NCBI GenBank assembly: GCA_976551045.1
Contig: CDPCPM010000013.1
Span: forward strand, 10,602,001-10,666,000
Source: Glaucostegus cemiculus
Lineage: Eukaryota
Length of the DNA: 64,000 nt
Reading direction: 5' to 3'
A program made the translations under genes and the position numbers. This document shows positions 8,801-56,101 of the stretch, piece after piece; the stretch's first letter is position 1, and each line of letters opens with the position of its first letter. The notes under the pieces are model-generated. The model saw only the letters and a program-made list of their open reading frames with translations. It was not told the origin of the DNA and made no database searches.

Positions 8801-8859
8801 ACCATGACTCTATCAAAACTCTTCATGATTTTGTATTCGTCGCTGCACACAAATCTGGT

Positions 8860-21306: not shown

Positions 21307-21309
21307 ATG

Positions 21310-24622: not shown

Positions 24623-24747
24623 GGACATCTTTGTCACAAACTTGTCATGCATGTCCTCTGCTGGAGGAAAAGTCTCCAAATCCTTTTCAAGCTGTTGAAG
24701 CTGTTTCTCCATCTGCTTAAGGCTCTTGTCCAAGTTTTCTGCACATA
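24623..24747 (-). CDS. DIAPH3: DIAPH3 coding exon (FH2), 125 bp
   Basis: ccttttatag|TA completes G+TA=Val, then CAENLDKSLKQMEKQLQQLEKDLETFPPAEDMHDKFVTKMS. Followed by the U12 donor ATATCCTTT. Confidence 0.95.
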
Positions 24748-27587
24748 CTATAAAAGGAAGACAATTAACAATATTAAAATGTTTAACCTACAGCATGAGT
24801 GAAAAACAGTCACTTTTTATCACAAAGATAAATTTAATTAAACTTTAAATATTGTTTATGTTCAATGACTTGCTTACAGATTGTGGAGAAAGTCATTTGT
24901 AAATTCCTGCTGTGCTGTGGTGTTATAATTTAACTCTTAGAATGCTGGCAATTTCAAACAAACTCTCATTTCCCTTAAACAATTGACTGCATTTGTTTAC
25001 AGCTCATATATCGAGGCACTGAACAAAACATTTCTGCCATATTAAAAGCATAAAACATCAAAGACAACTTACAGTCATAATAAATGAAATATAAAACTAT
25101 TACACAGCTAAAATATATGCATAAGGCATTTACACACTTCATATATGCTTCTATTCTTTATTCAACAATTTTAATTTAGGTTAATTGAGGTTAAAATGTA
25201 TTTCTACTATCTCATGCCTTTTTCAAATGTAAAGGTGAAAACTATTTTTATAACAATACAAAGCTTACATTACTGAGAAATATATTTGAGAGTTCATGAA
25301 TGAAAGGACTACATAATGAAGAATAAGTTAGCAATAAGATCAGGTCAAATCTTGAAAGGCAAATTTAGGAAACATTGGGCCAACTCATTGATGATTAAAT
25401 GCCATGTTCATTCCAGAATTACCCACAAATGGTCTATAAATGTAAAGAAAATTCTCAAACTTAGGATCTAGGGAAATCTATCTATAAAGGGAAAGTATTT
25501 ATGTGCAAGCTACAAATTAATAACATATCTCTTGTGCATATAATCCATCTCACAGTAGACACTTGAATATAACGCATACTTTCTTTCCTCAGTTATCTGC
25601 ATATAACAGAACTTTTTAGAAATACAAAGCAGAGTACAACAATAAAACTATAATGATTGAATGTCCATTTTCAAACAAAGGCTACACATTGCCACCTCCA
25701 GGAAATATTAACAGTTTCTCTGTGACATTAGCTGTATAACCAATACTCAAGTACAATAACAGCAAAAAAATCAAAATAAGAAATACAGAATGCAAATTGA
25801 CAACAATTATTTCAGGGGACTAGAAATGGTAAGCACCTTGGCCTTGAAACATGGCAATAAACCTATCCTCATTAGATAAAAGGTCTTTAATTACAGGTTT
25901 AAATGCATTTGAGAATTATTAGGGAAGTTGAAACACCTTACAGCTTGTGTTGTAGTTGTTTGCAAATCCATGCCATTAAATTTTTAGTAGGAAGAGCAGA
26001 ATCAGGGATTATTAGGAATGTGGAAGTGGACAGGTTTACATTACAGACTCTCCAGGTTTGGAAGCACAGACTTCAGTTAAGGGCACCACAGGGCCATGAT
26101 GAAGGTGAAAAATAAATTGTATGGATTCAAATTGGATGTTTTGGTAAAAATTTGGAAGCTTGGAAATGTAAAGAAGGTGGGTATAGGCTTATGGTTTGCA
26201 AGGGCAGAGGAGTCAATGGTGGATTTTTAAAGGGCTGATAGCAGTTTGAAGTAAAGCAGACAGTGATGTACTGAGGAAATTACTTACGGTGGCAGTCAGC
26301 ATAGGGGTAGCAAAAGAAACTGAGTGGATACACGAGTTCATGACAGAAGAAGATAAACCTCATGGATGAGATGGTATTGTGAGAAGTGGAAGGAAACATA
26401 ACATCAGAGTTCCACACCAGGATGGTGGAGGTTTTAATGGATAAGAAGAAGAGTGGCCATGTCTATGCCCTTCTTCACATGGTTAAAGGTAATATGAACT
26501 GCCTAATACATAGTACTAATATTTTGGGAATGATGCAATTCAAAAGTGAGGGTCATAAATATTTAATGCACCTTATTATTTTGTAGAAATACAATACTTA
26601 TCAATATAATGAACTGGATTGTATTGATGAATGGTCAGTGGTTCGATATGGAAACATCGGCCAGCTGCGGGAGCGAAGGTCTCCTGCAGCATCTCTGGAC
26701 TCGCCATCACAGCCGAGCAGAGTTCTCAAACAGTCTGAGCAGAGGGAAAAGTGGCTTGTTTTTTAAAGAAGAGTTTTAACAAATATTCATGTTTTTAATT
26801 TAGAAAAGTTAAAGGCACTTTGAATTTTTATTGATATTTTTAGAATTATTTACATGTATTTGAACTGTTTTGAAATGATGGAAAAAGCCTTCTAACAGCA
26901 TAATCTGTCAGCAGGCTGTCAGGCTGGTCATAGGGCAGGGCCTTAGTTTCCAGTACTGTGGCTTAGTCACTGCTTATGGACACAAAATTGTCATCGACCA
27001 CATTAACCAAATGGCCATGGGAACAAGGAAAGAGGTAATCGGGATCCACCGCAATATGATCATAGGCATCCTGTGAGTGCTGAACGCAAGGCGCAGGCTG
27101 GAACCGGTGCTATTTAGTCCATTAAAAACATCACACCAGCTGGCCTCAGGATAATTAATGGCATTTGGTCCCAATGTGAATTTTGCTATTGAAATAAAAC
27201 AGAAGAACAAGAAAGTAAAGCTGACGTATTGGAAATGAGCAGAAAAGCTGACTATTAAAGCTATTGGGATTGAAGATAAAATATAACCAAAAATGGATTT
27301 CTACAAATTCTGTTTTTGACAACTGCTAATGGATCACTTACAAATATTATTAAGGAATCCAAGAACATAAACTGATAATCTTCTGCAAATCTATCCATTG
27401 ATTTAAAAGTTTATATCAAATCCAAATCATATTTAATGATTTATACCAAATATTACAGCACAGCAGATGGTCTAATACAAAACCAAAAATTCATTGATTT
27501 AACCAGCATATTGATTACACAATTCAAAAAAGCAGAACCTTCTATACAAGTCTTTTAATTAAGTTCTGAACAACAACATATAAAAAA

Positions 27588-28205
27588 AGCAACAAACACA
27601 AAATGCTGGAGGAACTCAGCAGATCAGGCAGCATTTATGGAGGGAAATAAACAGTTGATGTTTTGGGTTGAGACTCTTCATCAGGATTGGAAAGGACGAA
27701 GGCAAAAGCCAGAAAAAAAAAGGTAGGGGAACGGGGAGGATCACAAGCTGGCAGGTGATAGGCGAGTCCAGGTGAGAGGGGTAAGGTAGAAGGGTGGGGG
27801 AGGGGGGATGAAAGGGAACGATGAGAGAAGCTAGGAAGTGACAAGTGGAAGAGGCAAAGGGCAGAAGAAGGAATCCAATAGGAGAGGATAGTAGACCATG
27901 GAATAAAGGAAAGGAGGTAGGGAGCCAGAGGGAGGAGATGGGCAGGTTGTGAGGATGGGGGAAGGAGAAAGAGAAGGGATGGGTGGCCACAAGAATAAGG
28001 GAAAACAAAAGGGGAGGAGGATGAGAAACAGAGGGGAATGGTTATCGGAAGTTTAAAAAAAATCGATGTTGATGCAGGCAGGTTGGAGACTGCCAAGTCA
28101 GAATAGGAGGTGTTGCTCCTCCAACCTACATCTGGCCTTAAAGTGGCAGTAGACGAGGTCATGGATTGACATGTCAGTACGGGAACGGGAAGCGGAATTG
28201 AAGTG
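27588..28205 (-). mobile_element. Penelope-like retroelement 3' end (GIY-YIG C-terminus, pyrimidine-rich UTR, pLTR with decayed hammerhead)
   Basis: A minus frame reads FNSASRSRTDMSIHDLVYCHFKARCRLEEQHLLF*LGSLQPACINIDF. Hammerhead-like CTGATGAAGAGTCTCAACCCAAAACATC at 27653-27688. Confidence 0.85.
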
Positions 28206-29130
28206 TCTCAAAAATTTTCTTCAGCCACATGGAATGAAAATACCTAGGGAACCATGAACAATCTAGGCAGCTTCTTCCACAGACAACAAACCTGAGACAA
28301 AGAGTAATAACCAGAAGGTAGTCCCAAAAGCAGCATCAAGAAAACATTAAGTAATGATTGACAACCTTGTCTCAAGCAAAGAGAATTACAAGATCTACCA
28401 GCTAACTTGACTCTGTGGCATTGCAATTTCAGATATCCTATAGGATAAAACAATCAACAGATCAAAATGAACAAGATTTGCACAGAAAATTAAATAACTG
28501 ATCTATGTAACTTTTCAATCATATTAATAACATGTTGGTGATTAGCAAGGGCAGGTAGATAATAATAATTTTTTAAATGTGGATTATCTTTGAGAAATAA
28601 ACCACAAAAAACATAATTTATTCTAACTTCTAAAGGGATTCTCATTTCCAATTTTGAACTGGTAAGGCTTTTGACAGTCTAACTATCACAGTGAAGACAA
28701 ATGCAGATCTCTTTATAAATCCTCTTCCCAAATAGTAGGAACCACTGTCAAATCATAGACATCAATAAAAAACACTGAAAGATACAACTCAAAGGCTGTG
28801 AGGTGAAAACAGTTCCTACAACACAAGTGAATAGAAGTGTGAAAGAAAACACATTTTATATATGTAGAGGATGAAAACAAAAGAACTAAATAATGTCAGT
28901 TGCCTTGAAGAAAGTCTGGAATGAAAAGTTACACTTATCTCGAGATGCTCAACCGACGATCAACACTGTGCTAGCTTTGAATGGTTGGAATACGAAGGTG
29001 ATATTTTCCTTCATCTGGAGATCGAAGAACATCTTTATATTCATGATAATTTGTGGGGAAAAAGTCACATTCAGTAACACAAAACTTCAAGTGTGAAGGT
29101 ACTAATGTTGAGAAGAGAAAGAATGAAAAA

Positions 29131-29350
29131 GTTGTAGCGACTCACGCTACCGGGGTCTGAAACGCTGTCGGCCATCGCGGGGAAGCGTGCGAGCTCTCGC
29201 GACAGTGCCGGAAGGCGGGACTTCCGGCAAGAGTATGATGTCACTTCCACCCGCCATGTTTTTTGTAGTTTGGGATATGCGCGGCTTTTTGGTGAGTTAT
29301 TAAAAGCGTGCTCGATCGAGTCTCTATGTCCTTGTGTTCTTCTAAGTCGC
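29131..29350. promoter_or_regulatory. Intronic CpG island, candidate bidirectional promoter
   Basis: About 21 CpGs in 220 bp against a CpG-depleted background. Motifs: TCTCGCGACA (29195-29204), CCGGAAG (29208-29214), GGCGGGAC, ACTTCCGG (29220-29227), ETS/CRE-like TGATGTCACTTCC, and YY1-type CCGCCATGTT (29251-29260). GTGAGT donors point outward on both strands. Confidence 0.7.
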
Positions 29351-29399
29351 ACCCTGCTGGCTGCTACAAAGTATTCTTTATTAAATTCCTTTTCAGGAT

Positions 29400-30960
29400 C
29401 AGGGTGGCAAGGGCAAGACCAACATTTACTGCTTATCCTTAATTGCTATTAAGAATATGATGGTGACCTTCTTAACTGTTGCAATCCTTCCAGTGAAGAG
29501 CTGTTGAAGGAGATCCAGGAATTAGACACAGGGACAATGATAAATGTCCAAGTCAGGATGGTGTGTGACCTTGATGGAAACCTGCAGGTGGTGATGTTTC
29601 CATGCACCTGCTGCCCTCATCCTGCTTTGTGGTAAAGTTCAAGGATTTGAGATGTGCTGTCACAGTAGCCTGGGCAAGTAACTGCAGTGCATTTTGTCGG
29701 TGGTGCACAGTGCAGCTACTGTGGACTGGTGGGTGAGGGAATAAATGTTTGGATAGTGGGTGAGGTGCCAATAGGGCCGTCTTGTCATGGACAATGCTCA
29801 GGTTTTTGAGAGCTCTTCAATGCATACTCTTTTAGAAAAGTAGAGTTTCTTCCTTTACACTCTTGATTGTACCATGCCAATGATGGACAGTGTCAGGAAG
29901 TGAGCTGTTTGCCACTGGTTACCCCAGCCTTTAATATGCATTTTTTAAAAATATATATTCAATGGTTATGCCATATGTCAAGGATAGATAGTTAAGAGTT
30001 TCTCTTACTTTATTCATTTGTTGAAGAGCTGAGAGTGGAATTGAATAGTATGCAATCATCAGTGTACACCCCCACTTCACAGCTTGTGATGAAGGATGAT
30101 AACTCATGAAGCAGCTGAAGATGGTTGGGCCCCTGACACTGGCATGAAGAACTCCCATGATGATGTCCTGGGTCTGGTATGACTGACCTCCAAAAACCAC
30201 AACAATCTTCCTTTGTGCAAGGTATGACTCCAAACACTGATGTCCATTGACTTCAATTTTTCCAGGCACCGTGATGCTGCCTTTATGTTAATGGCAGTCA
30301 CTTGCCTGTGAAATTCAGTTCTGTGAGCTACATTTGAACCAAGGTTGTGATGAGGCCTGGAATCAAGTAGTCCTGGTGAAACCCAATTAATTATAGGCAA
30401 GTTACTCATGACTATGAGCTGCTTGCTAGCTCTGGTGACAATAGCTTCCATCACTTTGTTGATTGGAAATTGAATGATTGTACAGTAACTAGCTGGATTG
30501 GACTTCCTTGCTTTTTGTGAACATTATCAACCTGGGAAATTTTCCCATTGTCTGGAAGATGCCAGTGTTGTCACTGCACTGGAAAAGCTTGGCTAAAAGA
30601 CACAGCTAATTTTGGAGCACAGATCTTCAGTATTGCTGGGATGCTGTCTGTTCCTGTAGCCTTTGCTGTCTCCAGTGCATTCAGCTACTTATTGATATCA
30701 TACAGAGTGCATCAAGTTGGCTCGAGACTGGCTTCTGTGACGTTGGGGATCTCAGGAGGAAGCCTCCTGAGAGATCATCCTCTGGCTGAATACAATTGTG
30801 GATGCTTCAGTGTTTTTCTTTAGAAATGACATGTTTATCCTTGCCTTCTTTCAGGAAATGTACTCCTCCTGTTGGCTGTTTAATTGTCTGCCACCATTCA
30901 TGATTAGATGTTGTGGGGCTGCAGAGCTTTGATTTGTTTCACTAGTTTGGAGATTTTTTA
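29400..30960 (-). mobile_element. Old CR1-like LINE remnant
   Basis: ORFs 29931-30269 and 30010-30237 carry decayed RT motifs (SVRGPTIFSCF, VYTDDC). Confidence 0.65.
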
Positions 30961-32299
30961 GCACTCAAGCAGTCCTGTAATTTCAGCTCTTAAAAAGAAC
31001 ACTTATGGAATTATTTTCCCCAATAGACATTTCCTATAATTTATTCTTTACAATATGCCTTGAAGAAAGTTCAGAATTTATAAATCGTCATAAATTAGAA
31101 ACTGAAAATGCATATATATCAATCCTAGGTAAATCATTTAAGTGAAAAAATTTCTAAATGTTCTCAGTTCCATATATATTAATTCCCTTTATTTGCAAAA
31201 GTTAGGAAGCAACTATGAAGATTGATTGACAAGTTGAATTCATCAACAATCACAACTGATTGGCCAAAACACAAAGTGCATGGTATATAAATGTGTATTT
31301 ATATTGTTACTGAGTTTTTAAGTATATTAAACTGCAACGGATTTTGGTGTCAAAACTACAAAATAAAAATCATGCTCGTTTAACCCATTATAGTTGTGAT
31401 GTTTTCTATTTAGGCAGAAAACAGTCCTCACATTGTATTAAGAAACTCGCACATTTTGCAACAGGTGGTACAGTATGCACGTCTGATCAGCAGTAAGACA
31501 CAAGTCTTGGATCTCTCACCAGCAATGATATTACTGGACCATAGCGTTTACACTTGTAACTGAATATAAATATGGATGCTTAGAAACAACCATTTTAGCC
31601 AAGACAATCTGCAAAAAGCTAGCAGTCTGTTAATGTTTCTTGGAATTTACAGCATTGTTGCACTACACGTTTATGAAAGTTCATACTATTGTGGTTTAAC
31701 TACAAAGTAATTCTCATCTTATCACCTGCTAATGAATAATGGAACACTATTATTCTGCAACCATCACCAGTTCAGTTCATGTACATTTAGTATATTTATT
31801 GTTTAGCATGTTTTTTGTTTTATTCAGGCCACTATACATATTTCAGAAAATTTGACTCACGATTGATTCATCTTTTAGATATTGATTACAAAGCAGTCTT
31901 AGATGTAGATCTTGTTACCCCAAGATCATTGTTTGACCTTGTATAGGTCAAACTTTGACTGAGTATAGCCTCACAAACCATATGAAGCATGCTCCCAACC
32001 AAAATAATATGGTGAAATACAGAAGGGGCTGGCTTATTGCGGGCAGCTGGCTGCATCCACAGAACAGCTTCTCCACTCCCAGCTCACCAGCTGTCAAAGA
32101 TGTCAGTGTTGTTGCATATTTATGAATGTCTTTCAAAATTACCTGGATACTACTAAAAACTAAAAATATTACAAAGTTTCTTTAATTAAAAGTAAAAAGT
32201 ATAAATAGAACATAAAATTGTAAAGTAACATTTAAACTAACCTTAATAATGACTACTGATTGGTCCCAGTCATTTGGATGGAGTATTGCTGTATTTCAT

Positions 32300-33200
32300 A
32301 CAGTCAAGGAACACAGAATCAGGCTCGTCACTACACCACCACCACTCTGCCACCACCGCCCCCCACACCCCCCCAACCATGTGCCTATCCATACCATTCT
32401 CATTTATCTCATTTACCAGCCCTTGTTCCATAGCCTTCTATAGATTGGCACTTCAAGTGCTCATCACGGTACTTCTTATATGTTGCGACATTACTGATCT
32501 TTACCACCCACTGAGGCAGGGTGTTGCAGCCTAAAAATGCCAACTGTATGAAAATGTTCTTCCTCAGATTCTTGCTAAATCTCTTGCCCTTACCTTAAAC
32601 CTATGACCCTCAGCTTTAGATGCCTCTGCTATGGAGAAAACGTTCCTCCTATCTACCCCATTACATCCCTCATAGTTCCCCTTCAGCCTCCTCCTAGAAA
32701 ACAAATCCAGATACTCCAGATAAATGAAACCATGAAACATTCATATGCTGGTAAATCTCCTCTGCACCCTCTCTTGTGCAACTGTGACCTTGTTACCACA
32801 CTGCAGGAAGAACTGCCCATAATACAAGTTGTGGCCTACCTAGTGTTTTATAAAACTATATTATAACCTCCTTACTCTTACACTCTTTACCCTGGATAAT
32901 GAAGATTAGTATCCAGTATTTCATCTTCATCACTTAAACTGTCTATGCTACCATATTAAGGGATCCTTGGCTTTGTACACCAAGGTCCCTCAGTTCCTCA
33001 ATACTCCTTTGAGGCCTACCATTCATTGTATATGTCCCATCCTTTCTCGTCAGCCCAAACTGCATCCACTTGCACTTATATCAGGATTAAATTCCATCTA
33101 TCATTGCTCTGCCACCTTACCAACTGAGCAATATCATCCTGCAGCCTATGGCTATTCTTCTCACTATCAACAGCACTATCGACTTCTATGTCATCTCAAA
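32300..33200 (-). mobile_element. Decayed CR1 LINE
   Basis: Similar to the minus-strand CR1 at 44335-45200. Confidence 0.6.
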
Positions 33201-33439
33201 ATACTGCTGTTTAAGTTGGAGTAGGCTCAATGGGCAGACATCCCCGCATAAGAGTTGAAAAATGGTTTGACTGGAACAGCTAAGAGACTATCAATGCTTC
33301 TTTTTATTAAAGCTAAACCAGCCAGTAAAGTATTGATTTACACATGGATTCACACATGCAACTAATTACTGAAACGTGAGTTTGCCCAGTTTTTACTGCT
33401 ATTCCACAAGCCTAACATCACTAATGCAGCATTTAAGTC

Positions 33440-33905
33440 GATGAAAGGTGTAAAGTTGAGGTACTTAATGGCACAATATGCCTTGACTGAAGTATGAAGA
33501 AACATTGGGTTGAATACTCTTATATTTGTTAGAGTTTAGAAGAATGAGAGGCAATCTCATAGAAATCAACAACATTTTAAAAGGATGGGACAAACTAGAT
33601 GCAGAGAACACGTTCCATACATCAGTCAGTCTAAAGATAAATGGTAAGCCATATAGCACTGAGATATGAAATTTCTTCACCCACAGAATGGTGAACTTGT
33701 GGAATTTTCTGTCAGAGAAAGCAGTTGAAGCTAACTCATTAAATGTACTTAAGAAGGAGTTGGATAGAATTCTAAGGGCTATGGGTTTTAGGAATATGGA
33801 GAGAAATCAAGAACAAGGTACTGAATCTGGATATTTAGCCATGATCATGTTGAATGGTGGAGCAGGCTTGAAGTGTTGAACCCTGCCCTTAACTTCTATA
33901 CTTCT
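33440..33905 (+). mobile_element. CR1 3' fragment
   Basis: ORF 33688-33879 (VNLWNFL..AVEA..KKELD) and a CR1 tail. Confidence 0.7.
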
Positions 33906-35734
33906 ACAATTGCTGTTGAACAACTTCCCAGTGCCTGAATATTTAACTTTTATGTTTTGCTGATCATTCATTCAGATATTAATTATTGCAGCTGATATTA
34001 TTAAAGGCTATTTAAAAAAAAATTCTCTCTCTTATTCCCTTCTTCCCTTCAACTGCATGATTCTGAATTGAATTAAACATCCCAGATTTAACATTCATAG
34101 TTTTGACTGTGTATTGCAGTGAGGATTCATCGATCTATTTGTTTAAAGAATATCCACATACAGCACAGACCACTGCAGGGAACAGCATGTTGAAAAGGAT
34201 CTCTGAACACTGTAAAACCATTGGAGGATCTAGGCAACTTTAAACTTAAAGATCAGTGAGCATTGTCTCTTGACCACTGACTGCTATTTTGGGCCAATGT
34301 TCTTATTTGTATGACATTAAAGTCAGTAGTTCAGTTAATTTACACATGATCCACAACACAAATATTAATAAAAAACACAATTCATAAAATGAAGAAATCT
34401 TTCATACCTTTTCCATTCTTTACTGTATTTGTACAAAGATGTAATTATTCTTCTCCCATCATTGCACTCTTCACTGTGTGTTTAGTCTTGTGCAAAACAT
34501 ATTACATTCAACCAAAAAATTGATGGGCATCTGTTGCTAAGCCTATCAATGGCACTAAATATTCCCTTAGTACGGATGAGTCAAACAACTTGACTCTCCT
34601 TTTATTGTTTCCTTTGCTGTGCAATGTCCTAGAGCAGCCAAGGATAGGAGCTTCCTATGGATGTACCATATATTCAAAGGCAACTTCTAGCAATGAAATT
34701 TAAACCATTTCACCCTGACATTTTAATTGTCAAGCATAAGTTGTTCCTAAACACAAATTGATATTTAGGTCACTTCCTGTGCTCCAAATGTAGACTAAAG
34801 AAGGAGAAGCTACAATTTAATTATACTTCAGTTTTTTTCATCAAGATGAACAGAAATTTCGCACAGAAATGTGCCCTACTTTGGAGCACAGGAAATCATT
34901 ACTAAAGTTCTTACATGTCAAACACAGAATATAGCTCCTTCTTTGAGGACACTATCATGCTTATAACCCACTGAATGAAAGTAGTAATCAGCAACAATGA
35001 CTCGCTATTATATATGAACTCAAACAGTCCTGCAAATTTAACTCTTCATGCCTTGCTCAGGATATTCACAAGATGAGGGATGCAGTAGAGAGGATTGATA
35101 TGAATAACAGAATATAATAAAGTCCATTCTCTTAATAAAAATCCATTACAATTAAACTTAAGGAACATTTGACAATGTGTGATATAGTCTCAAAAGTGCA
35201 CAAATTTAAAAAAAAAACAGAATCATCTCATACTCTATGTCCGATATGCATCTCTCTGGTATTTTGGAGAAAAGAAGGATCTTTCTCCCAAAATATGAGG
35301 TAAGGTACAAGAGTATCAACTTCATGACGGAAAAAGGTTAATGAATTTTTTGGAACTGAATATCCACTGTGGCTTTAACCAAGGCAAGCATTTTTTTTTA
35401 CATAGGTTCCTCAAATCTTTAAAATCAGAAATGATTACTGAACAATCACTTAAATATGAGGCTTCAAGATGATTAATTATGTAATAGGAGGTGTCTCGAG
35501 TGTTTAATTATAATTTGAAGAAGATAACCATAAACACATTCTAACATGAGCAAAACAATCTTTTAACTAAAAAGGTGAAACATTTCTGGCTTGGTTTGGG
35601 ACTCAATGCTCTTTTGAAGATATAGCTAAGAAACCTGTTTCATCAAAGAAGGTTATGAGGAAATCATTCCTTCCTGGCACCTACCTTATTTGCTGATTAT
35701 TTCGTATCACTTTTTCTTGAATATTCTTTTATTG

Positions 35735-36812
35735 GCAAATGGAATTTAATTCGGGTAAGTGCGAGGTGTTGCATTTTGGGAAAACAAGTCAAGGTAGAAC
35801 ATTCACAGTAAATGGTAGGGCCCTGGGGAGAGTCATAGAACAGAGGGACCTAGGAGTACAAATACAGTTACCTGAAAGTGGCAATGCAGTTAGACAGGGT
35901 AGTGAAGGCGGCCCTTGGCACGCTGGCCTTCATGAGTCAGGGCAGTGAGAAAAGAAGTTGGGATGTTATGTTGCAGTTGAATAAGATGTTGGTGAGGCTG
36001 CATTTGGAAGATTGTGTTCAGTTTTGATCACACTGCTTATAGGAAAGATTGGTATTGGTTTATTATTGTCACTTGTACCGAGGTACAGTGAAAAGCTTGT
36101 CTTACAAACCGATCATACAGGTCAATTCATTACACAGCACAGTTACATAGTTAGCACAGAGTGCATTGAAATAGTACAGTGAAAACAGTAACAGTACAGA
36201 ATAAAGTGTCACAGCTACAGCAAAAGTGCAGTGCAATAAGGTGCAAGGTCGCACAGGGTAGAATGTGAGATCACAGACCATCTCATTGTATGAAGGAACC
36301 GTATAAAGGAATCTCATTGTATAAAGATGCCATTAAGCTGGAAAGAGTTCAGAGGAGATTTACAAGAATGCTGTTGGGACTCGAGGGACTGAGTTATGGA
36401 GAGAGATTGAGCAGGTTAATACATTTTTCATTGAAGCATAGGGGAATGAGGGGTGATCTCATACAGATGTATAAAATCATGAAAACTATAGATAGGGTCA
36501 ATGCGCACAGTCTTTTTCTCAGGGTTGGTGAACGAAGAACCAGAGGGCATAGGTTTAAGGTGAGGGGGGGAGATTAAGTAGGAACCTGGAGGGGTAACTT
36601 TTTCACCCAAAGGGTGATTCATACATGGAATGACCTGCCAGAAGAATGGTTGAGGCAGATACATTAACAACTATTAAAAGGTACTTGGACAGGTGTATGA
36701 ATAGGAAAGATTTAGAGGGATATGGGCCATTCGCAGGCAAATGGGACGAGATGGAAATCTTAGTTGGCATGGACCAGTTGGGCCAAAGGGCCCGAATCCG
36801 TGCTGTATGACT
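35735..36812 (+). mobile_element. CR1 LINE 3' part carrying a nested Rex1 tail
   Basis: MEFNSGKCEVLHFG..EQRDLGV and LERVQRRFTRML..RGDLIQMYKI..TRGHRFKV. Tail gggccaaagggcccgaatccgtgctgtatgact. Confidence 0.87.
36049..36303 (-). mobile_element. Rex1-like LINE 3' UTR inserted in CR1
   Basis: Near-identical to 63232-63480 and to the reverse complement of 10500-10755. Confidence 0.85.
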
Positions 36813-38616
36813 GTAGTTTACCCTAACATGTTCTACTTCTGCTTGCTGCTGTGATGTCTGCCAAATGAAGACCCAGCAAAATTCATCAGTTTAGTAGTGT
36901 TCATATTTATTTTGAGATTCTTTCCAAAAATAAACTGCTTCTGCTTAACTGCTGTTTTAGCTTAGCTATCACGAGTTCAATTTCTTTGAACTATATAAAA
37001 AGCAGTGCACAAGTTTCTACTGTCTGCAACACAATATCTGAAGATCTATGATCTTCTCACAACTTCTGCCTTTAAAAAGAAACCTCAAGAATGGAAAGCT
37101 CATCTCACAGTGTAGAGCAAACCTGGTTTACTGATTCAGAATCAGGCCTCTGATGCCCTGAGAGAAGTGGTAGTTCAAGGTCAATTCTCTAACAAGGCTG
37201 AGGTGAAGTGAAGAAATTATCACTAGTACAGGCCACCCATTGCCACATGAAATGCAGAACAAAGTCAACAATTCTGAACTCTGGACTCTCACACTCCCAG
37301 CTCATCCAGTGTTGTCCAAAGTATCATCCAAGTAATTCTATATCTGACACCACAAACTTTATATTCTTAGATAAATTCTCAGTGCAATTGTAGTACAAGC
37401 ACCAGTTGCAAGGAAAATGATGGGTCAGAAATTCTCTCTTCCTTTCGAAATGCATTCCAAAATATCGCACAGAGGACCTGCATATCTTGGCCCAGGTGCT
37501 GTTGAAGCACAATTTTCTTCCAAGTTCCCCACTCAAGACTACAGAGGCATTCAAAACGCATAGAACCTTGATTTTTCTATTACTGTGTTAAGCACTTGTA
37601 ACTTCACAAATACCACACACCTGTGAAAATGAATCCACAGTAATTAGTGTCAGGGCACCACCTTAAAGGGGACGATCATTAATTAAGATCAGTGCTCCAA
37701 GGGAGGAGTACTGCAAATCCCTCAGCCTTTACAAATAGGTGCAAAGGATCGACAACAGGAGAGAATTAGAGGGAGGTGTTTAATGCTCAGGATTTCAGAG
37801 GACTTCACAAAGCTGAAATAAAGCACCAATGGGAATAGGTGGCAAGGGAGATCACAGCAGGGAAGGAGGTACTGTGAACTGGTCTCAAAGTGAGAAAAAA
37901 AATGCAATGAATTCATTATGTGACCAAAGTTAATAAAGACCCACAAATTCTGTTTGACAATGCACTACTTCAATCGCAGACTCTCCAACATTCCAACACA
38001 GACAAGGACGCACACATGCAAACAGCTATTTCACCATTCTGATATCTTAAAACCACACTCTCATGCAACATACGTTTTTCAGGAATTACCACCTGGAACA
38101 ACAAACTAGAGATAACTTTCCCAATCCCAGCAGTTGACTTGTTTGGAGAAGCATTTGCTAGTGAGCATGGCCTTTGCTACCATAGATCCAGTGAATGGAG
38201 CAAGTCTGAAATCACACATCCAATCAGTCTTTTCATAACTTATCTCCCTTCATCCCACTCTATTTATTGCCTCTGACTTTAACATGTCAAGCGTTTTTCC
38301 ACCTGTGCCTTCCCATGACCATTTTACTTCCCTCTGTCCTCATCCTGGAAGAATCATAAGAGATCCCACCTGCCTTGCCTTCTCTTTCCCTTCCACCCAA
38401 CTCTCTCAACAAGGAACATACTGCATCATTGAACCTGTCCACCAGCTCAGTTCCTGGGACTTTGCAAAATACAGAGGCTGGGATTTCATATATTTCAAGA
38501 CCAAGCCACCAGCGGATCGCTAACAAGTTAGGGAATTAAATAGCCAGTGTGGCAACTCTGGGTAGATTGCACACACTTCTGGCCCAGAATATTTAGATGG
38601 TGAATATGATAGGACA

Positions 38617-39441
38617 TGTTACAAAGTAGCCTGCTATGGGCAGATGTCCCTTTAAGATGGGACATTGTGTGTATGTGCAACGTATTACGTCAACAGAAGA
38701 TAAGACTAACGTGATGAGGTCATTACAAGAAAGAAAAAGATAGGAGAGAGAGGCAGACAGACAGAGAGAGAGAAGAAGGAGAGATGGCAGCCTGTTTTGT
38801 TTCTGTCGATGGATGAAGGACAGTAACTGTGTTTGTCACTAAAATCCGTGGATGGATTTCTGGAGTAGTCCAGTGGAGTTCACTTTGTCGGTAACTTGTA
38901 GAAGGATATAGGTGTTTGTGTGGACAACCACATTTTGGATGCTCTTCAGAGTGGCAGATACTGTGGAACAAAGTGACAGAATTCACTTCGCTGCTAACCT
39001 GTAGAAGAACAGGTATTTGCATGGATAGTCACGATTAAGGAGTTTTCGGGGTGAGAAAGTCACTACCGAGTAAGCCCTGAAGTGTCGTTTGAGTTTCAAG
39101 TGGAACATTCGGATTTCGTGATTCCTCTCTAATCTCTCTCTATATCTATGTTTTGTCTTCGGTGGACGGTGCTTGTGAAGAAGCCTTTATTCGTGTTTCA
39201 TCTTACGGCTTATTGAACTGAACTTTAAAAACTAATTCCTGGACTTGGAGTTTAGGAATTTGCCACACACACACGATGAGTAGTTTTTGGGGTTATAGTT
39301 TAAGATTCTAATATTTTGTTTTGTACTAATATACTAACTTTTTGTTCTTATTATACGTATTATCGGAAGTAGTTATTAATAAAGTAGTTTTAACACTGAA
39401 GTATGAGTTGGTGTGCTTCTTTTGTTGCTGGTTTCGTGACA
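38617..39441 (+). mobile_element. Solo LTR (probably Gypsy-type), 825 bp
   Basis: Begins TGTTACA and ends CGTGACA. The 4-bp target-site duplication GACA lies at 38613-38616 and 39442-39445. AATAAA near 39378; CpG content above the flanks. Confidence 0.8.
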
Positions 39442-40114
39442 GACAGCATAAAGGAAAAAAGAGCAGTTGAGACCGTTTTGCAAACACCACTCAGAACTGG
39501 CAAAATTATTATTTTCTTTATGCAGCCCATCATTGTGGATCTATACTGCATCCTTTCCAAGGTCTTGACATCTTTCCCAAATGAGTCCTGAAAACTAGAC
39601 CCATTGGTTTAATAGCTACCAAGCCAATCATCTGCAATGATTTAACATAACTTTTTCCTTGTACTCAATAACAACTATGACAGTACTTCAAAATACTTCA
39701 TTGACTGTGAAGCAATTTCAGACATCCCAAGGTTTCAGGAGTTACATGATTGTAAATTGTTTGCTGATGATTTCATGATTCCTGTATGTGCTTCTTCTTC
39801 CCAATCTACTGTGCACCAGGTTCTTCTATCATCACATTTAGTAAGTAGATTTTCTGCATTGTGAATAACCTTTGTAGTTACTACCACATACGATTATGGT
39901 GTTGCATTCCCATTGTTGCGAGAGAAACTAGTTATGCTTTAATTCACCTAAGCACTTGCAACTGACCTTGACTCGCCTTTAGTGTTGGATCCTGACTTAG
40001 GCTCTTTGATGGTTTATGGTTCTGGATAGTTGCCCTTCCTTTCTTGTAAATTACTTTTGACTTCCTAGCAATAGCTACAGTCACAGATACACAGACATCG
40101 GAAAGTGGTGGGCC

Positions 40115-40450
40115 AGAAAATACAATCCACAGATTATGCAAGGGTTCTGTTCCTATGAACTGCCCGTAACCAATTTCTCCATAATGTAGAAATGTTCATT
40201 TTCTATAGCTGCCCACTTTGTATTGCTCTACATGCACTTGTTATCATTCTTTCATTTAATCAAATAGTCACCATAACTCCACTCATAATTAAACTAAGAG
40301 AATATACTGTATCCAGTAATTAATGAATACTACAGGACATTATTACTTTTATTATTATTATTCTGAAAAATACTTCAAAACACATGGGAGAATTTTCATA
40401 AAGTTGGATTTCCGTAATTCAGGTCACCTGCAATATGGGAAGCCCCTGTA
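40115..40450. mobile_element. Degenerate Tigger-like MITE
   Basis: Right end ...gggaagcccctg|TA and left end acagattatgcaagggttc resemble the termini of the 2900-3218 element. Confidence 0.4.
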
Positions 40451-41824
40451 GTCCATCTAGGCTCCACACTTACATTAGATTGAAAATGTAGAAATTACTA
40501 ATATCCTAGGAAAGACAAAACAGCATGGAAAAATTCTGGGTCATTAAGGGAAAAACATAAGAAAAATCATTCCCAGGCTCCATGAAGTACTGAAACCAGT
40601 CATGGAAAAACACATTCATCCAGCACACACAGTCTGATAAATATACTGCTTGCAAATGTATTGAATTAATCAGAAACACTTTAAGACCTTGAAACAGTGC
40701 TTTCACACAATATACTAACAAATCCCCTTCTTCGACTGTATATTCACCATATACTCACCTGCACAGATTCATACTGCTTGACTGATATTCAGCCGTGAGT
40801 GAGCTAGAAGTTACCCTTCAATGAAGTTTTCAAAAAAGATTCAAGTCATTACTTCTGGCCTCTGGCAAAAAAAAATTCCTTTACAGTTCATCTGCCAGGC
40901 TGCTCTCTTAGACTGTGCGCAAGCTTAATTTTTGATTTGATCCCCAGTTGAGCCTCAAACCTCACATCCTATTCATCACAAAGACAGCTCATTTTCGGCT
41001 TTGTAATGTATCTTCTGACCAGTTACATACCATTAAAAACCTCATTCATGCCTTTATTGCCTCCAGCATGATTTTGCCAGTATCCTCCTTGACCTCCCAA
41101 ACTCAAGTCTTTGCAAATATCTAACTTTTTCAAAATTCACTCCAGATCCCACTCATTTTAAAGAGAAGGTTCATGTACAGCATAGCGTAACCAACCATTG
41201 CTGACTTAGGGGCATGGGAAAACTTGTTACGATTTACTGGCTGGCAATGTCAGTATTTGAATTTTGCCCTAGTTATATTCAATTAGTGAATTTAAGTTTA
41301 CTGAGAGCTGGGCTGATGAATGATAGAGGGACTAGGACAGAGGAAATGTTTAAGCACACAAATCTGACAAATAATTTGCTGACTGCAAGTTCCAGCAGTG
41401 AATGAAACAAAGGAAACATTTTACATTTGGTGTGGTTCCACCAGTATTAAGAATGTAGTAGCATTCCTGAGTCACTTCAAATTTGACGAATCCTGAGGAT
41501 GACATGCACACATTCCACCTGCTGTCAAGTTTTGTGTGCGTTATGTGGAAAAATGATACATTTATCAACTGTCTCCATTCTAAAGACTCCACACAAATAA
41601 CAAAACTTACATTTTGTGCAAAAACACCAATTCAGATTCCAGTGCAAAAATTCTACATTGTGTACAGTGATGAGCAATTTGAATAAGAACTCCTCTGAAA
41701 CTTTCCCCAATAAAACACAGGATGTTCATATTGTACAAAAATAACTGCAATTATGATATGTCCGATAACCTGCTGTTCAACTATTTGGAAATCCTGTTGG
41801 ATTAGCATTAGGCTTATTGGATGG

Positions 41825-42090
41825 TGATTCCCATGCTCTTTCTCACACACTCGGACCCAGGTTCCTGCACTCCCTTGCACACACCAGAGCCCTGCTTCCC
41901 TTTAATCAAGTCTCTGGGCTCCAAGTTCCCAAGCTCCCTTTAAACTCACCAGTGCTCTCGGTCCTGAGCGTGCTGTCAATGACTTAGTTCCATTTCCTGC
42001 ACTCCCTTGAACCTCACCTGCTTCTGTTTCCCACGATCACTTGAAACTTACTGGAGTCTTGATTTCCCATGCTCCCTTTAAACTTACCTA
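41825..42090. repeat. Degenerate minisatellite (unit about ttcccatgctccctttaaactcacc)
   Basis: Several imperfect units, e.g. ttcctgcactcccttg twice and ccctttaaact(c/t)acc twice. Confidence 0.55.
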
Positions 42091-42174
42091 TTTTACTGGA
42101 AAATTTACTCTTTGTGTAACATCTACAAAAAAGTAAATTAGAAGGATTTCGCAGTATTAATGGAATAACATCCC

Positions 42175-42780
42175 GGAATCAGAATCAGCTTGATTATCAC
42201 TGACACATGTCCTGAAATTTGTTGTTTTGTGGCAGAAGTACAGTGCAAGACATAAAATTTACTACAAGTTACAAAAATAACTAAATAGTACAAGAGAGGA
42301 ATAATGAGGCAGTGTTCAAGGACTGTTCAGAAATCTGATGGCATAGGGGAAGAAGCTGTTCCTGAAGTGTTGAGTGTGGGTCTTCAGACTCCTGTACCTC
42401 CTCCCTGATGGTAGTACTATGAAGAGGGCATATCCCAGATGGTGAGGGTCCTTAATGGTGGATGCCACCTTCCAGTTAGCCTGGTTGAAGACCTGCGATG
42501 ATTGGGAAGGCATCAGGGTGTGCTATCTCGCTACTGCTGATCAAGGAGATCAGCTCCTCCAGCGCCAGCTTGACATTTTCCAAAGGTGGAATGTACACCA
42601 TGACCAGGATGACGGCAGAGGACTCCTTCGGCAGATGAAACAGAGGATACTTGACCTCCAGATGGTCCAGGACTGAGACAGAGCTGGCACATCTGTGCAC
42701 CATCCATAAAATCCAGACTAACATCCAGAAAATCTACTGGCCTGGCACTATTAAGGTCCAGGGTTCTCAATGAACGGAGT
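42175..42780 (-). mobile_element. Internally deleted Rex1-like LINE (APE fused to C-terminus and 3' UTR)
   Basis: ORF 42476-42724 (LPKESSAVILVMVYIPP..AHPDAFPIIAG) abuts ORF 42316-42513 (..IKDPHH..LPSGRRYRSLK..NSFFP). (TCTGAT)n-type tail at about 42175. Confidence 0.75.
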
Positions 42781-43139
42781 TTTATTGTATTACCTCAAAA
42801 CAGGGAATCCAGAAAATACTGTGGGTCATCATCGGCAGCAGTGTTTATTCTACCACAATATGTAAAAGGATGTCTCAGCATATCCATTGTTTTACCATTA
42901 CTTTCAAGCTAAAAATTAACTGATTTAAAGTAGTATGTGGAGTGTTTTGAAGAGCAGAAGCATAAATGCCCCAACAAAAATGGGCACCAACCCACTGCTA
43001 CAACACAACATGGGTGCTAAACAACAAATGAAGAAAGTAACCCCACAACCAATGAATCAAAGCCCTGAAGTCCCACCACAACAAGGTCCTAAAGTGGGAG
43101 AGAATTTAACAATAAAAAGATGAGGTTCCATGAATATTA

Positions 43140-44320
43140 CCATCCTTGATGATGGTGGAGCACAGCATGCGAGCGCAAAAGTGAAGGGTGAAAAGATTCA
43201 ACCACAAGTGCCAAATGGATAATGCATTTCCGCCTCCTCATGAGGTCCCACCAATACAAGTACCAGCTTTCAGCTGATTCCATTCATTCCAATCAATAAA
43301 GGAAACAGTGAACCCACTGATTACGCGAAGAACTATGGGTCCCAACAACATGCTGGCTGTGGTGCTGAAGATCTGTGCTCCAGAACCAGGTGCGTCTTTA
43401 GCTAAGTTGTTCAAGTATAATAACAATTCCAGCATCCTCCTGGCAAAGTGGAAAACTGCTCAGTTATATCTTAATCAAACAAAGGATAAATCCAGTCCAG
43501 CTCCATTAATCTACTCTCAATTACCTTCAAAGTTTTGGAAGTTGTTGATAACAATACTATCAAGGGATGTTTATTCATTGGCAACTAATTCATTAATGCT
43601 TGGATTGGTTCCATCACACCACTTGATACTAAACCTTAGTTCAGCACAGTCTAAACATGAATGAAATAACTCATTTCCAAAGACAAAATGCTGAAGGCTG
43701 CACTGGTCATCAAGATGGCAACTGAATGAGTGCTGCATCAAGGGAAAGTTGCGACCAGCAAATTTAAGTCATTTTTAAAACAAAAATATCATTGCTGGCA
43801 GAAAATCAAACCAAGTGTAATGGTAATAGTTGGAGGGCAAACACCTCAGCCCTAGAACACTGCCTCAGTTGTTCTTCAGGGTACTGTGCTCAGTCAAATT
43901 ATCTTAAACAATGAACTTCTTTGAATTATGTCAGAAGTTAGGTAACTTGCTAATGACTACACTGTGTTTAGTTCTGCAGCCAACTCTATCGATATTGAAA
44001 AAATCCTTCCCTGCATGCAACAAGACTTGTGCTTATAAATGACAAGATAAGTGCCAGGCAATAACCATCTCCAACAAAGGTGTCTAACATTCTCCTGTGG
44101 ATATTCAGCAACATCACTACCCATGCCCCATCATTAGTGTCCTGGAGTTATTATGGCCAAAAACATAACAGGCAGAGCCATATATTTGCCTTTGTAGTGA
44201 ATGTGTATTCTGTGACCAAATATTCACCTTTTGATTTCCCAAAGACTTTTGCCCATCTACAATCAAGAGTGTGAACAAATATCAATTGCCTGTATAATTG
44301 CAACTCCTAAACAACTTGTT
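43140..44320 (+). mobile_element. Old CR1-like LINE remnant
   Basis: ORF 43308-43664 (GPNNMLAVVLKICAPE..LAKLF..WKTAQ); same family as 29400-30960. Confidence 0.65.
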
Positions 44321-44334
44321 AAAGCGTTTTTCAA

Positions 44335-45200
44335 AATCATAGAACATAAAAAAGTATAGCACAGGAACAGGCCAGTTGGCCCACCACATTTGTGCCAACC
44401 ATGATGTGACAAATCCCAGCTCCCTGAACAAAGACCATATCCCTCCATTCCCTGCCTGTTCATGTGTCTGTCTAAATGCCTCTTAAATGTTGCTATTGTG
44501 TCTGCTTCTAACACCTCTCCTGTCAGTGCATTCCAGGCACCAACCAACCTCTGCATAAAAAAACTTGGCTCGTAAATCTCCTTTAAACTTTCCTTAAATG
44601 ATAACATTTGAGAGTTTCAACCTGGGAAAAAGAATCTGCCTATCTACCAATCTCTGTCTCTCATAATTTTATACACTTCTATCAGATCTCCCCTGTGCCT
44701 CTACTGCTTCAGACAAAATAATCAAGTATGTCCAACCTCTCCTTTTAGCTCATACTCTCCAATCCGAGCAACATCCTGGTGAATCTCTCCTACACCCTCT
44801 CCAAAGCCCCCACATCCTTCCTACAGTATGGCGACCAGAACAGCACACAATACTCCAACTGTGGTCTAACCAAAGATTTATACAGCTGCGACATGACTTG
44901 CCAACTTTTATACTCAACAATCTAACCAATGAAGGCAAGCATGCCATTTGCCTTCTTTACCACCCTATACACTTGCCACTTTCAGGGAGCTATGGACTTG
45001 TACCCCGAGGTCCCTTGGTACATCAATAAGTCCCAAGGATCCTGCCATTTACTGTACAAGTTCTTTTTTGCATTTGACCTTCAAAAATGCAACAACTCAC
45101 ACTTTTCCAGATTAAATTCCATCTGCTATTTCTCTGCCTAACTTTCAAAATGATCTATCTCCTATTGTATTCTTTGACAACTTTCCTCACAATCATACTT
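44335..45200 (-). mobile_element. CR1 LINE 3' part
   Basis: ORF 44263-44607 (FFMQRLVGAWNAL..FKRHLDRHM) and 44750-44947; tail at about 44340. Confidence 0.85.
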
Positions 45201-45282
45201 CCTAACCTGTGGCATCTATTGTACAGATGAACAAAGTCATCAAATGTATAGGAACGCCAGTACTTCCAAGTCACCCTTCAAG

Positions 45283-45536
45283 TGCGGCACAATAGCATAG
45301 CGTTTAGCACAACACTGTTACAGCGCCAGTGATCGGAGTTTGATTCCCGTCGCTGACTGTAAGGAGTTTGTACATTCTCCCGTGCCTGCGTGGGTTTCCT
45401 CCGGGTGCTCCGGTTTCCTCCCACATTCTAAAAAGACGTACAGGTAGGTTAATTTGGGGATTTAAAATGGGTGGCGCGAACTCGTTGGACCAAAAGGGCC
45501 TGTTACCACACTGTAATAAAATAAAATAAATAAAAA
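45283..45536 (+). mobile_element. V-SINE with type-A tail
   Basis: Same head, core and tail as the 50531 copy; (TAAAA)n end. Confidence 0.88.
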
Positions 45537-47159
45537 GTCACACAATGCTGATATCAAATTTTATCACCGATCCTTCATCATTCCCAAGTCATAGTCCTGC
45601 AACTCTCTTCTAGGTTTAAGGTGAGAGAGGGAATGTTTAAAGGAAATTTGCTTGCCATTTTTTTTTTTTTTTTTTTTTTACAGAGAGTGGTACGTGCCTA
45701 GAATACTCTGCAAGGAGGGGTGATAGAAGGAGATACAATGGGAACTTTTAAGATTATCTTTGACAAGCTGACTGTAGCAGTTGAGGATGGCAGCTTATCA
45801 TCATGTCCACTTCAGAGGGGGTACCCATATATTGAGCTTGCCAAATATCAACTGAGTATATCTCTGTTTTCTAGATATTCCAGAGCCTTCAAAATCATGC
45901 AATTCTTTAAATGGAGAAACTATTTCCACGTAGTTGAGTCCAAAAAAAAGTCACAAACAGACCAGAATTCTCTTTGCAGGAAATGATGAAAACATACACT
46001 TGGGGTAGTCCTGAGTGATTGAAATAAATAGCACCAATCTTTTTAAAGTAAAGTTAAATGCACATGATGAATAAGAAGGATGCAGAAGCAAAATGGCAAG
46101 GTGTCATTTGATTGTGAGAAGAACAAATGAAGCCGAGGGCATTTTATTATAAGTTGGAATAGATGATACCAAACCAATGTCTTTTTTTCTTTACTAGATA
46201 AACTACCTATGCTTAAAGAAAAACAAGACAGGGAGAAAAGCTATGTGCAAAACATCAGCTTCAAGGTGCTGAGTCACTTCAGTTATTGTTACAGCAGGAG
46301 TCACTATTATTGATATTTATGTCCTTTGGAACAGAGAAGCAAATCTAATTAGAAAATCATTTCCAGGTATTTTCCAAATACAGAATAAAAATTTATGTCT
46401 AAAGATATACCTGTAGAGCTTTCAAAATATCTGAAATAACATAATTAAAAAAATCATATAAATTATTAATGCAAGACTTTAAGTTTAAACAACACAAAAT
46501 GTGAAATGCATCTTTGGGCAAGGTTTACAATGTACACAGCTTCTCCTTCAATTGAAGTAAACAAATACCAGAGTTCACAAAATTTTTTTACTAAAAAGCA
46601 TTTCTTGGGAAAAGTAACAACTTTCTTCTAATGGAGCATATAGTAATAGTGAAATTACATTCTGTGAACAATGCAAGGCTATTTTCCTTGTCCACTGAAG
46701 GAAATGAAAAAATCAATAAAACTCAGGAGTCAGGTTGGTATGAGTAATCAAAACTAACAGATGGGAGACCATCTTCACAACATGATATCTCACTACCTTG
46801 AAGCAGCATCATGTGCAATTGTAGATTGGGACAATTGTAGATTGCTCCACTAGTCCACCTAGTAACATAACAAATGTAGGTTTTGAAGCAGTTCCAAGTT
46901 GGTAAAATGTGGCCTCTCTTGCCTAACATTAAAACTTTGTTGGTTGAGAAGCACAGCTCTGCTTACATATCCAGTCTTGCATACATGCAGATCTGAAACC
47001 ATGGCCCAGATGTTGATGAACAAACTATTGACTTGCCAATTCTATCAGCTGCAAGTAAAACCCCCATCTCCCACTGTGGTCCTGATGGGAATATGATCAA
47101 TTTTGAATTCAGAGCCTCAATTGCATATTTGTTGGGCTGCAGACAGAAAATAGGCACCC

Positions 47160-47395
47160 TAATAGCGTAGCGGTTAGCGCGACGCTGTTACAGCGCCAGC
47201 GATCGGGGTCCGATTCCCGTCGCTGACTGTAAGGAGTTTGTACGTTCTCCCGTGTCTGCGTGGGTTTCCTCCGGGTGCTCCGGTCTCCTCCCACAATCTA
47301 AAGACGTGCGGGTAGGTTAATTTGGGGGGTTTAAAATGGGCGGCGTGGACTCGTTGGGCCGAAAGGGCCTGTTACCACGCTGTAAATAAAAATTT
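47160..47395 (+). mobile_element. V-SINE with type-A tail
   Basis: CpG-rich copy; tail gggccgaaagggcctgttaccacgctgtaaataaaa. Confidence 0.88.
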
Positions 47396-47899
47396 AAATT
47401 TTTTTTTTAATTAAAAATTAATATTACCCACCAACTCTTAAGTGTGGCATGGGGGTTTGAAGAGAAACTGGTTCAACTTCTCCTGTACCCAAAAGTAAAC
47501 AAAAATCATTTTTGGCTATTCTGTAAGATGAAACTGGTACATTCTGTGAAGTTTATCCATCTTAAAGTGGTAATCAAGATCTATTCTGGAGCATCTGCAT
47601 TATAAAAATATAGACATAAAGCTATATTTTTAAATGAAAAATTCTCTTAATTACTTCTGTGCAACACTAAATACCGTTTGCTAGTTAAAGCAACTTTTTG
47701 TTCACTCGAGCCCTGCCAAATTCTGATCAGCAAGACTAATAGATGTAAAGTAGCTTCCATAATATAGGCAATGGAAATGGGCCACTTTCTTTTCTGATCC
47801 TTTGCAGAAACTGAAATCTTTCCCATTAGCTTCTAAATGCAGTGAATAACCACATAGTCCACAGGCTTGCTTTTTACTTTAGTGGAATTAAGATACAAG

Positions 47900-50530: not shown

Positions 50531-50770
50531 GGGCGGCACGATAGTGTAGTGGTTAGCGTGACGCTGTTACAGCGCCAGCGATCGGGGTTCGATTCCCGTC
50601 GCTGTCTGTAAGGAGTTTGTACGTTCTCCCGCGTCTGCATGGGTTTCCTCCGGGTGCTCCGGTTTCCTCCCACATTCTGAAAGACATACGGGTAGGTTAA
50701 TTTGGGGGTTAAAAATGGGCGGCATGGACTCACAGGGACGAAAGGGCCTGTTACCACATTGTAAATAAAG
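50531..50770 (+). mobile_element. V-SINE with type-A tail
   Basis: Pol III A box TAGTGTAGTGG (50542-50552), B box GGTTCGATTCC (50586-50596), V core and CR1-like tail. Flanked by atgatcct on both sides. Confidence 0.9.
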
Positions 50771-54583: not shown

Positions 54584-54585
54584 TG

Positions 54586-55891: not shown

Positions 55892-56101
<210 letters not shown>

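Follow-up and report, generated by a model that had tools for sequence, protein, structure and literature searches.

We conclude that the CpG-rich patch at 29131-29350 of our window, by which we mean the whole 64,000-nt stretch of Glaucostegus cemiculus DNA analysed here, is probably a young solo LTR lying antisense to DIAPH3, and that the promoter motifs within it would be the element's own. The first-pass annotation of this DNA had described the patch as a housekeeping-type bidirectional promoter driving a nested sense transcript and an antisense transcript. By its sequence the patch is promoter-type DNA that may fire, but its ends have the form of those of an integrase-made insertion, and two nested coding transcripts found no support. 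With such ends the patch comes close to the very case, origin from a transposon, that the annotation had named as refuting its own reading. The element would be Gypsy-like or class I retroviral, one LTR being unable to separate Gypsy from ERV, and because ERVs are scarce in the elephant shark (PMC4977317; papers are cited by PMC number, and for the portions of their text that were available) the assignment leans to Gypsy.

The host gene

The patch lies within DIAPH3, on the minus strand, as judged from the protein matches to the exon at 24747: 96 of 102 are named DIAPH3, three are hypothetical, three are unnamed and none is named DIAPH1 or DIAPH2. As the closest named relatives of this exon are chondrichthyan (Callorhinchus, 93%; Heptranchias, 90%), the host is chondrichthyan DIAPH3. 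Five minus-strand formin exons (62073-61834, 56068-55939, 24747-24623, 14878-14714 and about 14203-14068) code for the late FH2 region and the tail of the formin; no further DIAPH3 exon was found in 1-14067 of the window, and the DAD-coding exons lie past its left edge. These exons bear out the placement of the patch within a 31-kb DIAPH3 intron, which runs from 55938 to 24748 (Table 1).

Table 1. Coordinates of the patch, the unit that encloses it and related features of the window
Feature	Position	Strand	Remarks
DIAPH3 intron hosting the patch	24748..55938	-	31,191 nt, phase 1
Next DIAPH3 exon downstream of the host intron	24623..24747	-	Late FH2, 125 nt
Left copy of AAGT direct repeat (putative target-site duplication)	29129..29132	.	
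236-bp unit, putative solo LTR	29133..29368	+	All 21 CpGs inside; GC 55%; antisense to DIAPH3
Left terminus TGTAGC, inverted-repeat arm	29133..29138	+	TGTNR pattern (PMC2836005)
Donor-like GTGAGT	29140..29145	-	Unit positions 8-13; ranks in the top 5.5% of GT sites (approximate matrix)
10-codon frame, ATG at 29175 to donor	29146..29175	-	Phase 0
BANP-type motif TCTCGCGACA	29195..29204	+	9/10 to TCTCGCGAGA; motif from PMC9363121
Two opposed ETS cores flanking GGCGGG	29208..29227	.	CCGGAAG on plus, CCGGAAGT on minus
GGAAGTGACATCA, ETS core and degenerate CRE-like half	29236..29248	-	Without TGACG
YY1-type motif CCGCCATGTT	29251..29260	+	Motif from PMC3491394
12-codon frame to the plus donor	29256..29291	+	Phase 0; no relative found
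Donor-like GTGAGT	29292..29297	+	Ranks in the top 1% of GT sites (approximate matrix); ATTAAA 7 nt after
ATTAAA poly(A) hexamer	29299..29304	+	70 nt from right end of the unit
GU/U-rich run past the hexamer (putative U5 downstream element)	29320..29341	+	Assigned by sequence match
Right terminus GCTACA, other inverted-repeat arm	29363..29368	+	
Right copy of AAGT direct repeat (4 bp)	29369..29372	.	
Second unit of the same build	38617..39441	+	825 bp, TGTTAC...GTGACA, GACA repeat

Ends and anatomy of the unit

Starting from an imperfect inverted pair around the patch, we arrived at a 236-bp unit whose terminal inverted repeat is perfect over 6 bp (6/6), with pairing ending there. GC content steps from 31 to 66% at its left end and from 48 to 36% at its right end, and there are zero CpGs in the 109 nt to the left (29024-29132) or in the 322 nt to the right (29369-29690). 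Neither strand of the unit has a poly(A) hexamer other than this ATTAAA, and no PBS-type TGG stands behind the right end. The unit thus resembles the solo LTRs of Gypsy elements and class I ERVs in its TG...CA and TGTNR ends, its short inverted repeat and 4-bp flanking repeat, and also in the order of promoter sites, poly(A) hexamer and GU-rich run, the lack of a PBS or any inside, and the antisense position in an intron. In vertebrates, insertion of Gypsy and ERV1 elements duplicates 4 bp of the target. TGTNR ends are described for Gypsy elements (PMC2836005), target-site duplications are of 4-6 bp and solo LTRs form by LTR-LTR recombination (PMC10886601, PMC4977317), LTRs hold a promoter (PMC4977317), and intronic LTR elements are biased to antisense, the orientation that survives in introns (PMC1794541); the available portion of PMC5753468 held no statement on duplication lengths.

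Unlike Gypsy and ERV solo LTRs, the unit has no TATA box, carries a dense housekeeping-type kit of BANP, ETS and YY1 sites and has no paired copy in the window. We found neither a coding relative of it nor a second copy in the 64 kb, a length that would reveal only very abundant families. There is, in the same intron, a second unit of the same build (38617-39441), which like the 236-bp unit faces the plus strand, antisense to DIAPH3. Its AATAAA stands 64 nt from its right end and its CpG O/E is 0.70, with 21 CpG inside against 2 and 1 in the 300-nt flanks. Compared at their 3′ ends, the two units show no significant likeness (rank 184 of 6350; 174/3000 shuffles).

Could the unit be an integrase-made insertion of some other kind, either a short non-autonomous DNA element of Ginger-like type or a 3′ LTR left by a decayed element with its internal region on the left? 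We regard this as very unlikely. Duplications of 4 bp are also found with Helenus/TRIM elements (PMC10886601) and Ginger elements (PMC2836005), and its TGTNR ends are shared with Ginger1, but an inverted repeat of 6 bp is far from the 40-270 bp of Ginger1 or the 50-180 bp of Ginger2 (PMC2836005) and the duplicated site is not CCGG or CCGT, so that Ginger was rejected. Helenus TRIM, which has two tRNA-derived LTRs with a GGTTC box B and both PBS and PPT, was likewise rejected: GGTTC is absent from both strands, nothing matched tRNA or Rfam, and there is no second LTR or PBS. A 3′ LTR would find a polypurine tract in the run directly left of the unit (21/23 purines at 29109-29131), and the plus strand to the left is A-rich and holds five CpGs; against this, a duplication at the left end is not expected of a 3′ LTR, the window contains no partner LTR, and the frames to the left matched nothing in Pfam and gave Atlas leads that all score below 0.9 (at 28925-29074).

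Two further origins were discarded. A MITE bounded by the 20-nt, 75% inverted pair fails since the true match is the inner 6 bp. An old repeat found by self-BLAST at 29383-30820 on the minus strand, which we take to be LINE-like, has a tail ending about 10 nt from the right AAGT; 3′ transduction by it was rejected, the repeat having a CpG O/E of 0.07 against 1.3 for the unit, and the unit having its own duplication. Nor is the patch a recognisable structured RNA: Rfam gave 0 matches at gathering score, its matches elsewhere all being sub-threshold, ARAGORN gave 0, and the predicted fold is unremarkable (z -0.44; 68/200 shuffles as good).

How often would such ends arise by chance?

The bracket formed by the ends of the 236-bp unit was identified post hoc, after looking, and brackets as such are not rare. 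In the window 17 TG...CA pairs combine an inverted repeat perfect over 6 bp with a duplication of 4-6 bp, so there are 16 others; the 236-bp unit has 8.9 CpG per 100 nt and the other 16 have 2.2 or fewer. Pairs of the form TGTNR...YNACA with a 4-bp repeat number 35, among which the unit is top in CpG density and stands alone in having its inverted repeat perfect over 6 bp; the 825-bp unit ranks second. A bracket falls within 30 nt of a 211-nt patch by chance at 25/63,300 positions if perfect 6-bp ends are asked for and at 17/21,100 with the looser published end pattern, the corresponding figures for 100 nt being 92/63,300 and 111/21,100, and 1/20,000 flank shuffles gave such a bracket. The chance of a bracket this near the patch is therefore about 4e-4 to 8e-4, and in our judgement the bracket favours insertion by a factor of some hundreds.

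A coincidence of that size at the island edges is what is required if the patch is instead a native orphan CpG-island promoter, bidirectional and giving rise to non-coding or short-ORF RNAs (nested sense and antisense), its terminal repeats being coincidental. We consider this reading quite unlikely, and the evidence that bears on it from the motifs, the CpGs and the splice donors is weighed in the sections below.

Promoter-type motifs

The patch holds 21 CpG in 220 nt (GC 54.5%, CpG O/E 1.30, as against 0.24 for the window), in agreement with the roughly 21 per 220 bp reported earlier, and nothing else in the window is similar to it, so the earlier remark that it is unlike any repeat there also held. 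The lenient rule for CpG islands asks for at least 200 bp, GC 50% and O/E 0.6, and the strict rule for at least 500 bp and GC 55%: by the former the longest island stretch is 330 bp (29091-29420), and by the latter there is no island, the best 500-bp window having 48.8% GC.

BANP, ETS and YY1 motif types all occur inside the patch, in a stretch of 66 nt. The annotation had placed its BANP-, GABP/ETS- and YY1-type sites correctly, but its details of the GC box, the CRE and the second ETS site needed correcting. For instance, GGGCGG is absent and GGCGGG is present twice instead, and GGAAGTGACATCA, offered as an ETS/CRE-like site, has the ETS core but a CRE-like part that lacks TGACG. Similarly, two opposed CCGGAAG cores are present, at 29208 (plus) and 29227 (minus), but only one ETS site reads CCGGAAGT, and the BANP-type site is there but matches TCTCGCGAGA at 9/10 positions. 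The YY1-type motif provides both the plus ATG (29256) and a minus ATG (29257). Our motif scan found no ZNF143/M4, NRF1 or CCAAT motif in the patch.

In its motif types the patch is like the bidirectional housekeeping promoters in which GABP, YY1 and BANP act (PMC2077898, PMC3491394, PMC9363121). BANP acts via TCTCGCGAGA in fish, depending on methylation state, with a reported TSS spacing of 20-70 nt (PMC9363121), and the BANP-type site of the patch stands about 20-60 nt from either ATG. A single GABP site raised reverse activity in 4/6 promoters (PMC2077898), and that one such site can confer bidirectionality favours a native promoter. Unlike those promoters, the patch has no strict GABP site (CCGGAAGTG, PMC2077898) at its CCGG cores, a BANP site at 9/10 and no head-to-head gene pair that we could find.

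A native promoter is also favoured by a motif cluster that exceeds shuffles, the significance of which varies with the counting scheme. All three core motifs together were found in 0/20,000 dinucleotide shuffles, the three having been chosen after being seen; with a fixed panel of eight promoter motifs, of which three are present in the patch, 291/20,000 shuffles attain three. A second BANP-type 10-mer, TCTCGCGAAA, lies at 53811-53820, alone in CpG-poor intron, so this motif arises outside islands too.

CpG retention

Does the CpG density of the patch mean that it is unmethylated? The other five densest 220-nt CpG windows are all copies of one SINE family, a point against a native promoter; the copies at 47161, 21091 and 50531 have 23, 21 and 18 CpG per 220 nt. 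Four near-full SINE-like copies (21056-21307, 45284-45526, 47161-47403 and 50528-50774) are 85-94% identical and keep 13-23 CpG (O/E 0.96-1.28), each having lost between 1 and 10 of the 23 CpG sites common to them, and the family is young and CpG-rich. Because young SINEs keep as many CpGs, the density of the patch does not indicate hypomethylation. In the elephant shark transposons are methylated (PMC5437953), so that in the present genome retained CpGs agree with a young copy no less than with a hypomethylated one; the same species has hypomethylated DNA at expressed TSSs (PMC5437953), as a native promoter would have it.

Five CpGs at 28941-29023 fall outside the 236-bp unit, as a hypomethylated shore of a native promoter would give. 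A two-boundary fit places the best left CpG edge at 28941, with 2-unit support from 28909 to 29138, so that 29138 is only just inside, and at least five CpG were found in 8/233 control windows. Amid these CpGs is a good minus-strand acceptor at 29014, 131 nt from the donor, and further along the minus strand, at 28622, is an AATAAA with a GU-rich run, both of which would suit a native transcript. So would the T excess of the minus strand at 28210-28929 (skew 0.23, matched by 10/296 overlapping windows, all ten in purine-rich stretches near 27.7 and 51-52 kb), but minus-strand transcription of DIAPH3 could itself produce this skew.

It can be added for a native promoter that orphan islands are common, 42-44% of them with initiation (PMC2944787). 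The patch is like the orphan intragenic islands of Illingworth et al. (2010; PMC2944787) in being CpG-rich, TATA-less, in a gene body and off an annotated start, and if unmethylated it would, by analogy, work like an orphan island promoter. It is short for one, at 330 bp or less by the lenient rule, and bounded by insertion-type ends. Orphan and non-methylated islands (PMC2944787; Long et al., 2013, PMC3583005) are defined by measured non-methylation, and in cold-blooded vertebrates island prediction from sequence performs poorly at picking out unmethylated DNA (PMC3583005); we therefore do not class the patch as an orphan island.

Mini-exons and splice donors

Each strand of the patch has an ATG, a short open frame and an outward GTGAGT, just as the annotation had it (Table 1). 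It had left out further ATGs, at 29257 on the minus strand, where a 36-codon frame opens and stops just before the donor, and at 29235 and 29238 on the plus strand. GTGAGT faces outward on both sides in 11/20,000 shuffles, and an ATG with a purine at -3 that is open to GTGAGT occurs on one strand in 355/20,000 and on both strands in 0/20,000. Paired outward donors with open ATG frames are thus rare in shuffles, and they are not predicted by an LTR. In our judgement native bidirectional promoters, too, seldom have two exact GTGAGT donors spaced by no more than 146 nt, and so the donors favour a native promoter only modestly. YY1 sites frequently overlap start codons (PMC3491394), which explains one of the two ATGs. 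Antisense solitary ERV9 LTRs contain splice sites (PMC1794541), and the foamy-virus LTR has a donor 5′ of its poly(A) signal (PMC3694450), the arrangement seen on the plus strand here; the latter is an analogy only, for that layout is called unique to foamy viruses (PMC3694450) and nothing else in the patch suggests them.

The frames open to a donor on both strands might speak for head-to-head small coding genes, or for an alternative first exon of a short DIAPH3 isoform, but we hold either to be extremely improbable. One ATG comes free with the YY1 motif, and neither mini-exon has a relative. The plus mini-exon frame drew 19 candidates, none at E 10. The minus mini-exon was compared with proteins within the 124-aa frame that holds it, and the three matches of that frame (32-39% identity) were rejected as tandem-repeat proteins. 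Word, full-library, exact and Atlas comparisons covering the island and adjacent frames brought up no relative (exact look-up, 0/6), either mini-exon peptide occurred in 0/100 DIAPH3 matches, and none of four matches was a short DIAPH3 isoform.

Spliced directly, the minus mini-exon (phase 0) does not keep the frame of the DIAPH3 exon that follows (phase 1). The result would be a 47-codon ORF with its stop 114 nt inside that 125-nt exon, overlapping two of three in-frame ATGs, at offsets 36 and 96. A stop far upstream of later junctions normally invites nonsense-mediated decay. In favour of an alternative first exon, the DIAPH3 frame would be regained through any of three candidate bridging exons, but this is at chance level, at least one such candidate being found in 22/28 control blocks.

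Protein domains in the surrounding DNA gave the same picture. Pfam scans, from which frames mostly within self-repeats were left out, covered 118 frames of at least 33 aa on both strands of 24.7-32.6 kb (three sub-threshold matches, the DIAPH3 exon alone being above cut-off), 155 plus-strand frames of at least 40 aa beyond 32.6 kb (two sub-threshold, none above cut-off) and 136 minus-strand frames of at least 35 aa below 24.6 kb (nothing apart from DIAPH3); as a positive control, FH2 was recovered in 4/5 DIAPH3 frames. These searches address nested genes within the window and are weak for exons under about 33-40 codons. Atlas had nothing usable for 26977-27300. An exon scan with approximate splice matrices gave no candidate above background; the scan is a weak test, true exons having ranked only 37th and 240th of 354. 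In the literature we found nothing on a nested gene in a DIAPH3 intron or on DIAPH3 with LTRs and sharks, and, judging by titles and opening lines of abstracts, nothing relevant on an alternative DIAPH3 promoter.

Origin and significance of the patch

Several points count against a solo LTR, namely the post hoc bracket, the lack of a second copy in the window, the outside CpGs, the paired donors and the missing TATA box. If we nevertheless take the patch to be one, how might it have come to look like a housekeeping promoter? An integrase would have put a full element into an AAGT site beside the tail of the older repeat (29383 onward), and LTR-LTR recombination would then have deleted the inside, leaving one LTR. 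The BANP-, ETS- and YY1-type sites would be the TATA-less U3 promoter of the element, with its RNA start on the plus strand. The youth of the copy would explain the survival of its CpGs, as with the nearby SINEs, and the LTR would owe its persistence to a sense poly(A) signal that points away from DIAPH3. Whether the copy is transcribed today is a matter of judgement, and we think it rather unlikely; if it is, the products are most likely non-coding or out of frame.

As a solo LTR the patch would be ordinary, such pieces being frequent in vertebrate genomes (PMC4977317). It would also be a caution for shark and ray genomes: what looks like a unique CpG patch rich in motifs can turn out to be an LTR of low copy number, and the ends of such a patch should be read before an orphan promoter is called. 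A larger possibility, and one we consider unlikely, is that a shark/ray LTR family carries a ready bidirectional CpG-island promoter of BANP, GABP and YY1 sites, stays unmethylated and seeds promoters. The patch would matter more if the family does stay unmethylated and start transcripts, since a slowly evolving lineage would then have a direct supply of new housekeeping-type promoters.

Highly improbable is a combination of such seeding with splicing from the minus donor through a bridging exon into DIAPH3, which would give a C-terminal product of about 300 residues; for the bridging step (27185-27137 being one candidate) the evidence is frame arithmetic. The product would keep the autoregulatory DAD and lack most of FH2, and it could thereby act as a competitor for the inhibitory DID in full-length formins. 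A DAD can act in trans. Autoinhibition in formins works through DID and DAD (PMC7311390, the available text of which held no passage on DAD acting in trans). If a DAD-only DIAPH3 product is made, it would matter more still.

Other features of the DIAPH3 region

To the left of the patch, self-BLAST also identified a repeat remnant at 27590-28210 on the minus strand, presumably Penelope-like. The unique stretches 26550-26800 and 26800-27200 hold six CpG each in CpG-poor intron; they have no Pfam or Atlas match and could be old repeats or conserved non-coding DNA.

Minor introns occur in DIAPH genes, and the DIAPH3 intron at 24622-14879 on the minus strand is a minor-spliceosome AT-AC intron, with donor ATATCCTTT, branch site TTCCTTAAC and a CAC end. 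One supplementary file of PMC7367187 contained no DIAPH entry in its available part. A gar protein, P0005, terminates in the same read-through residues as the AT-AC donor, which looks conserved.
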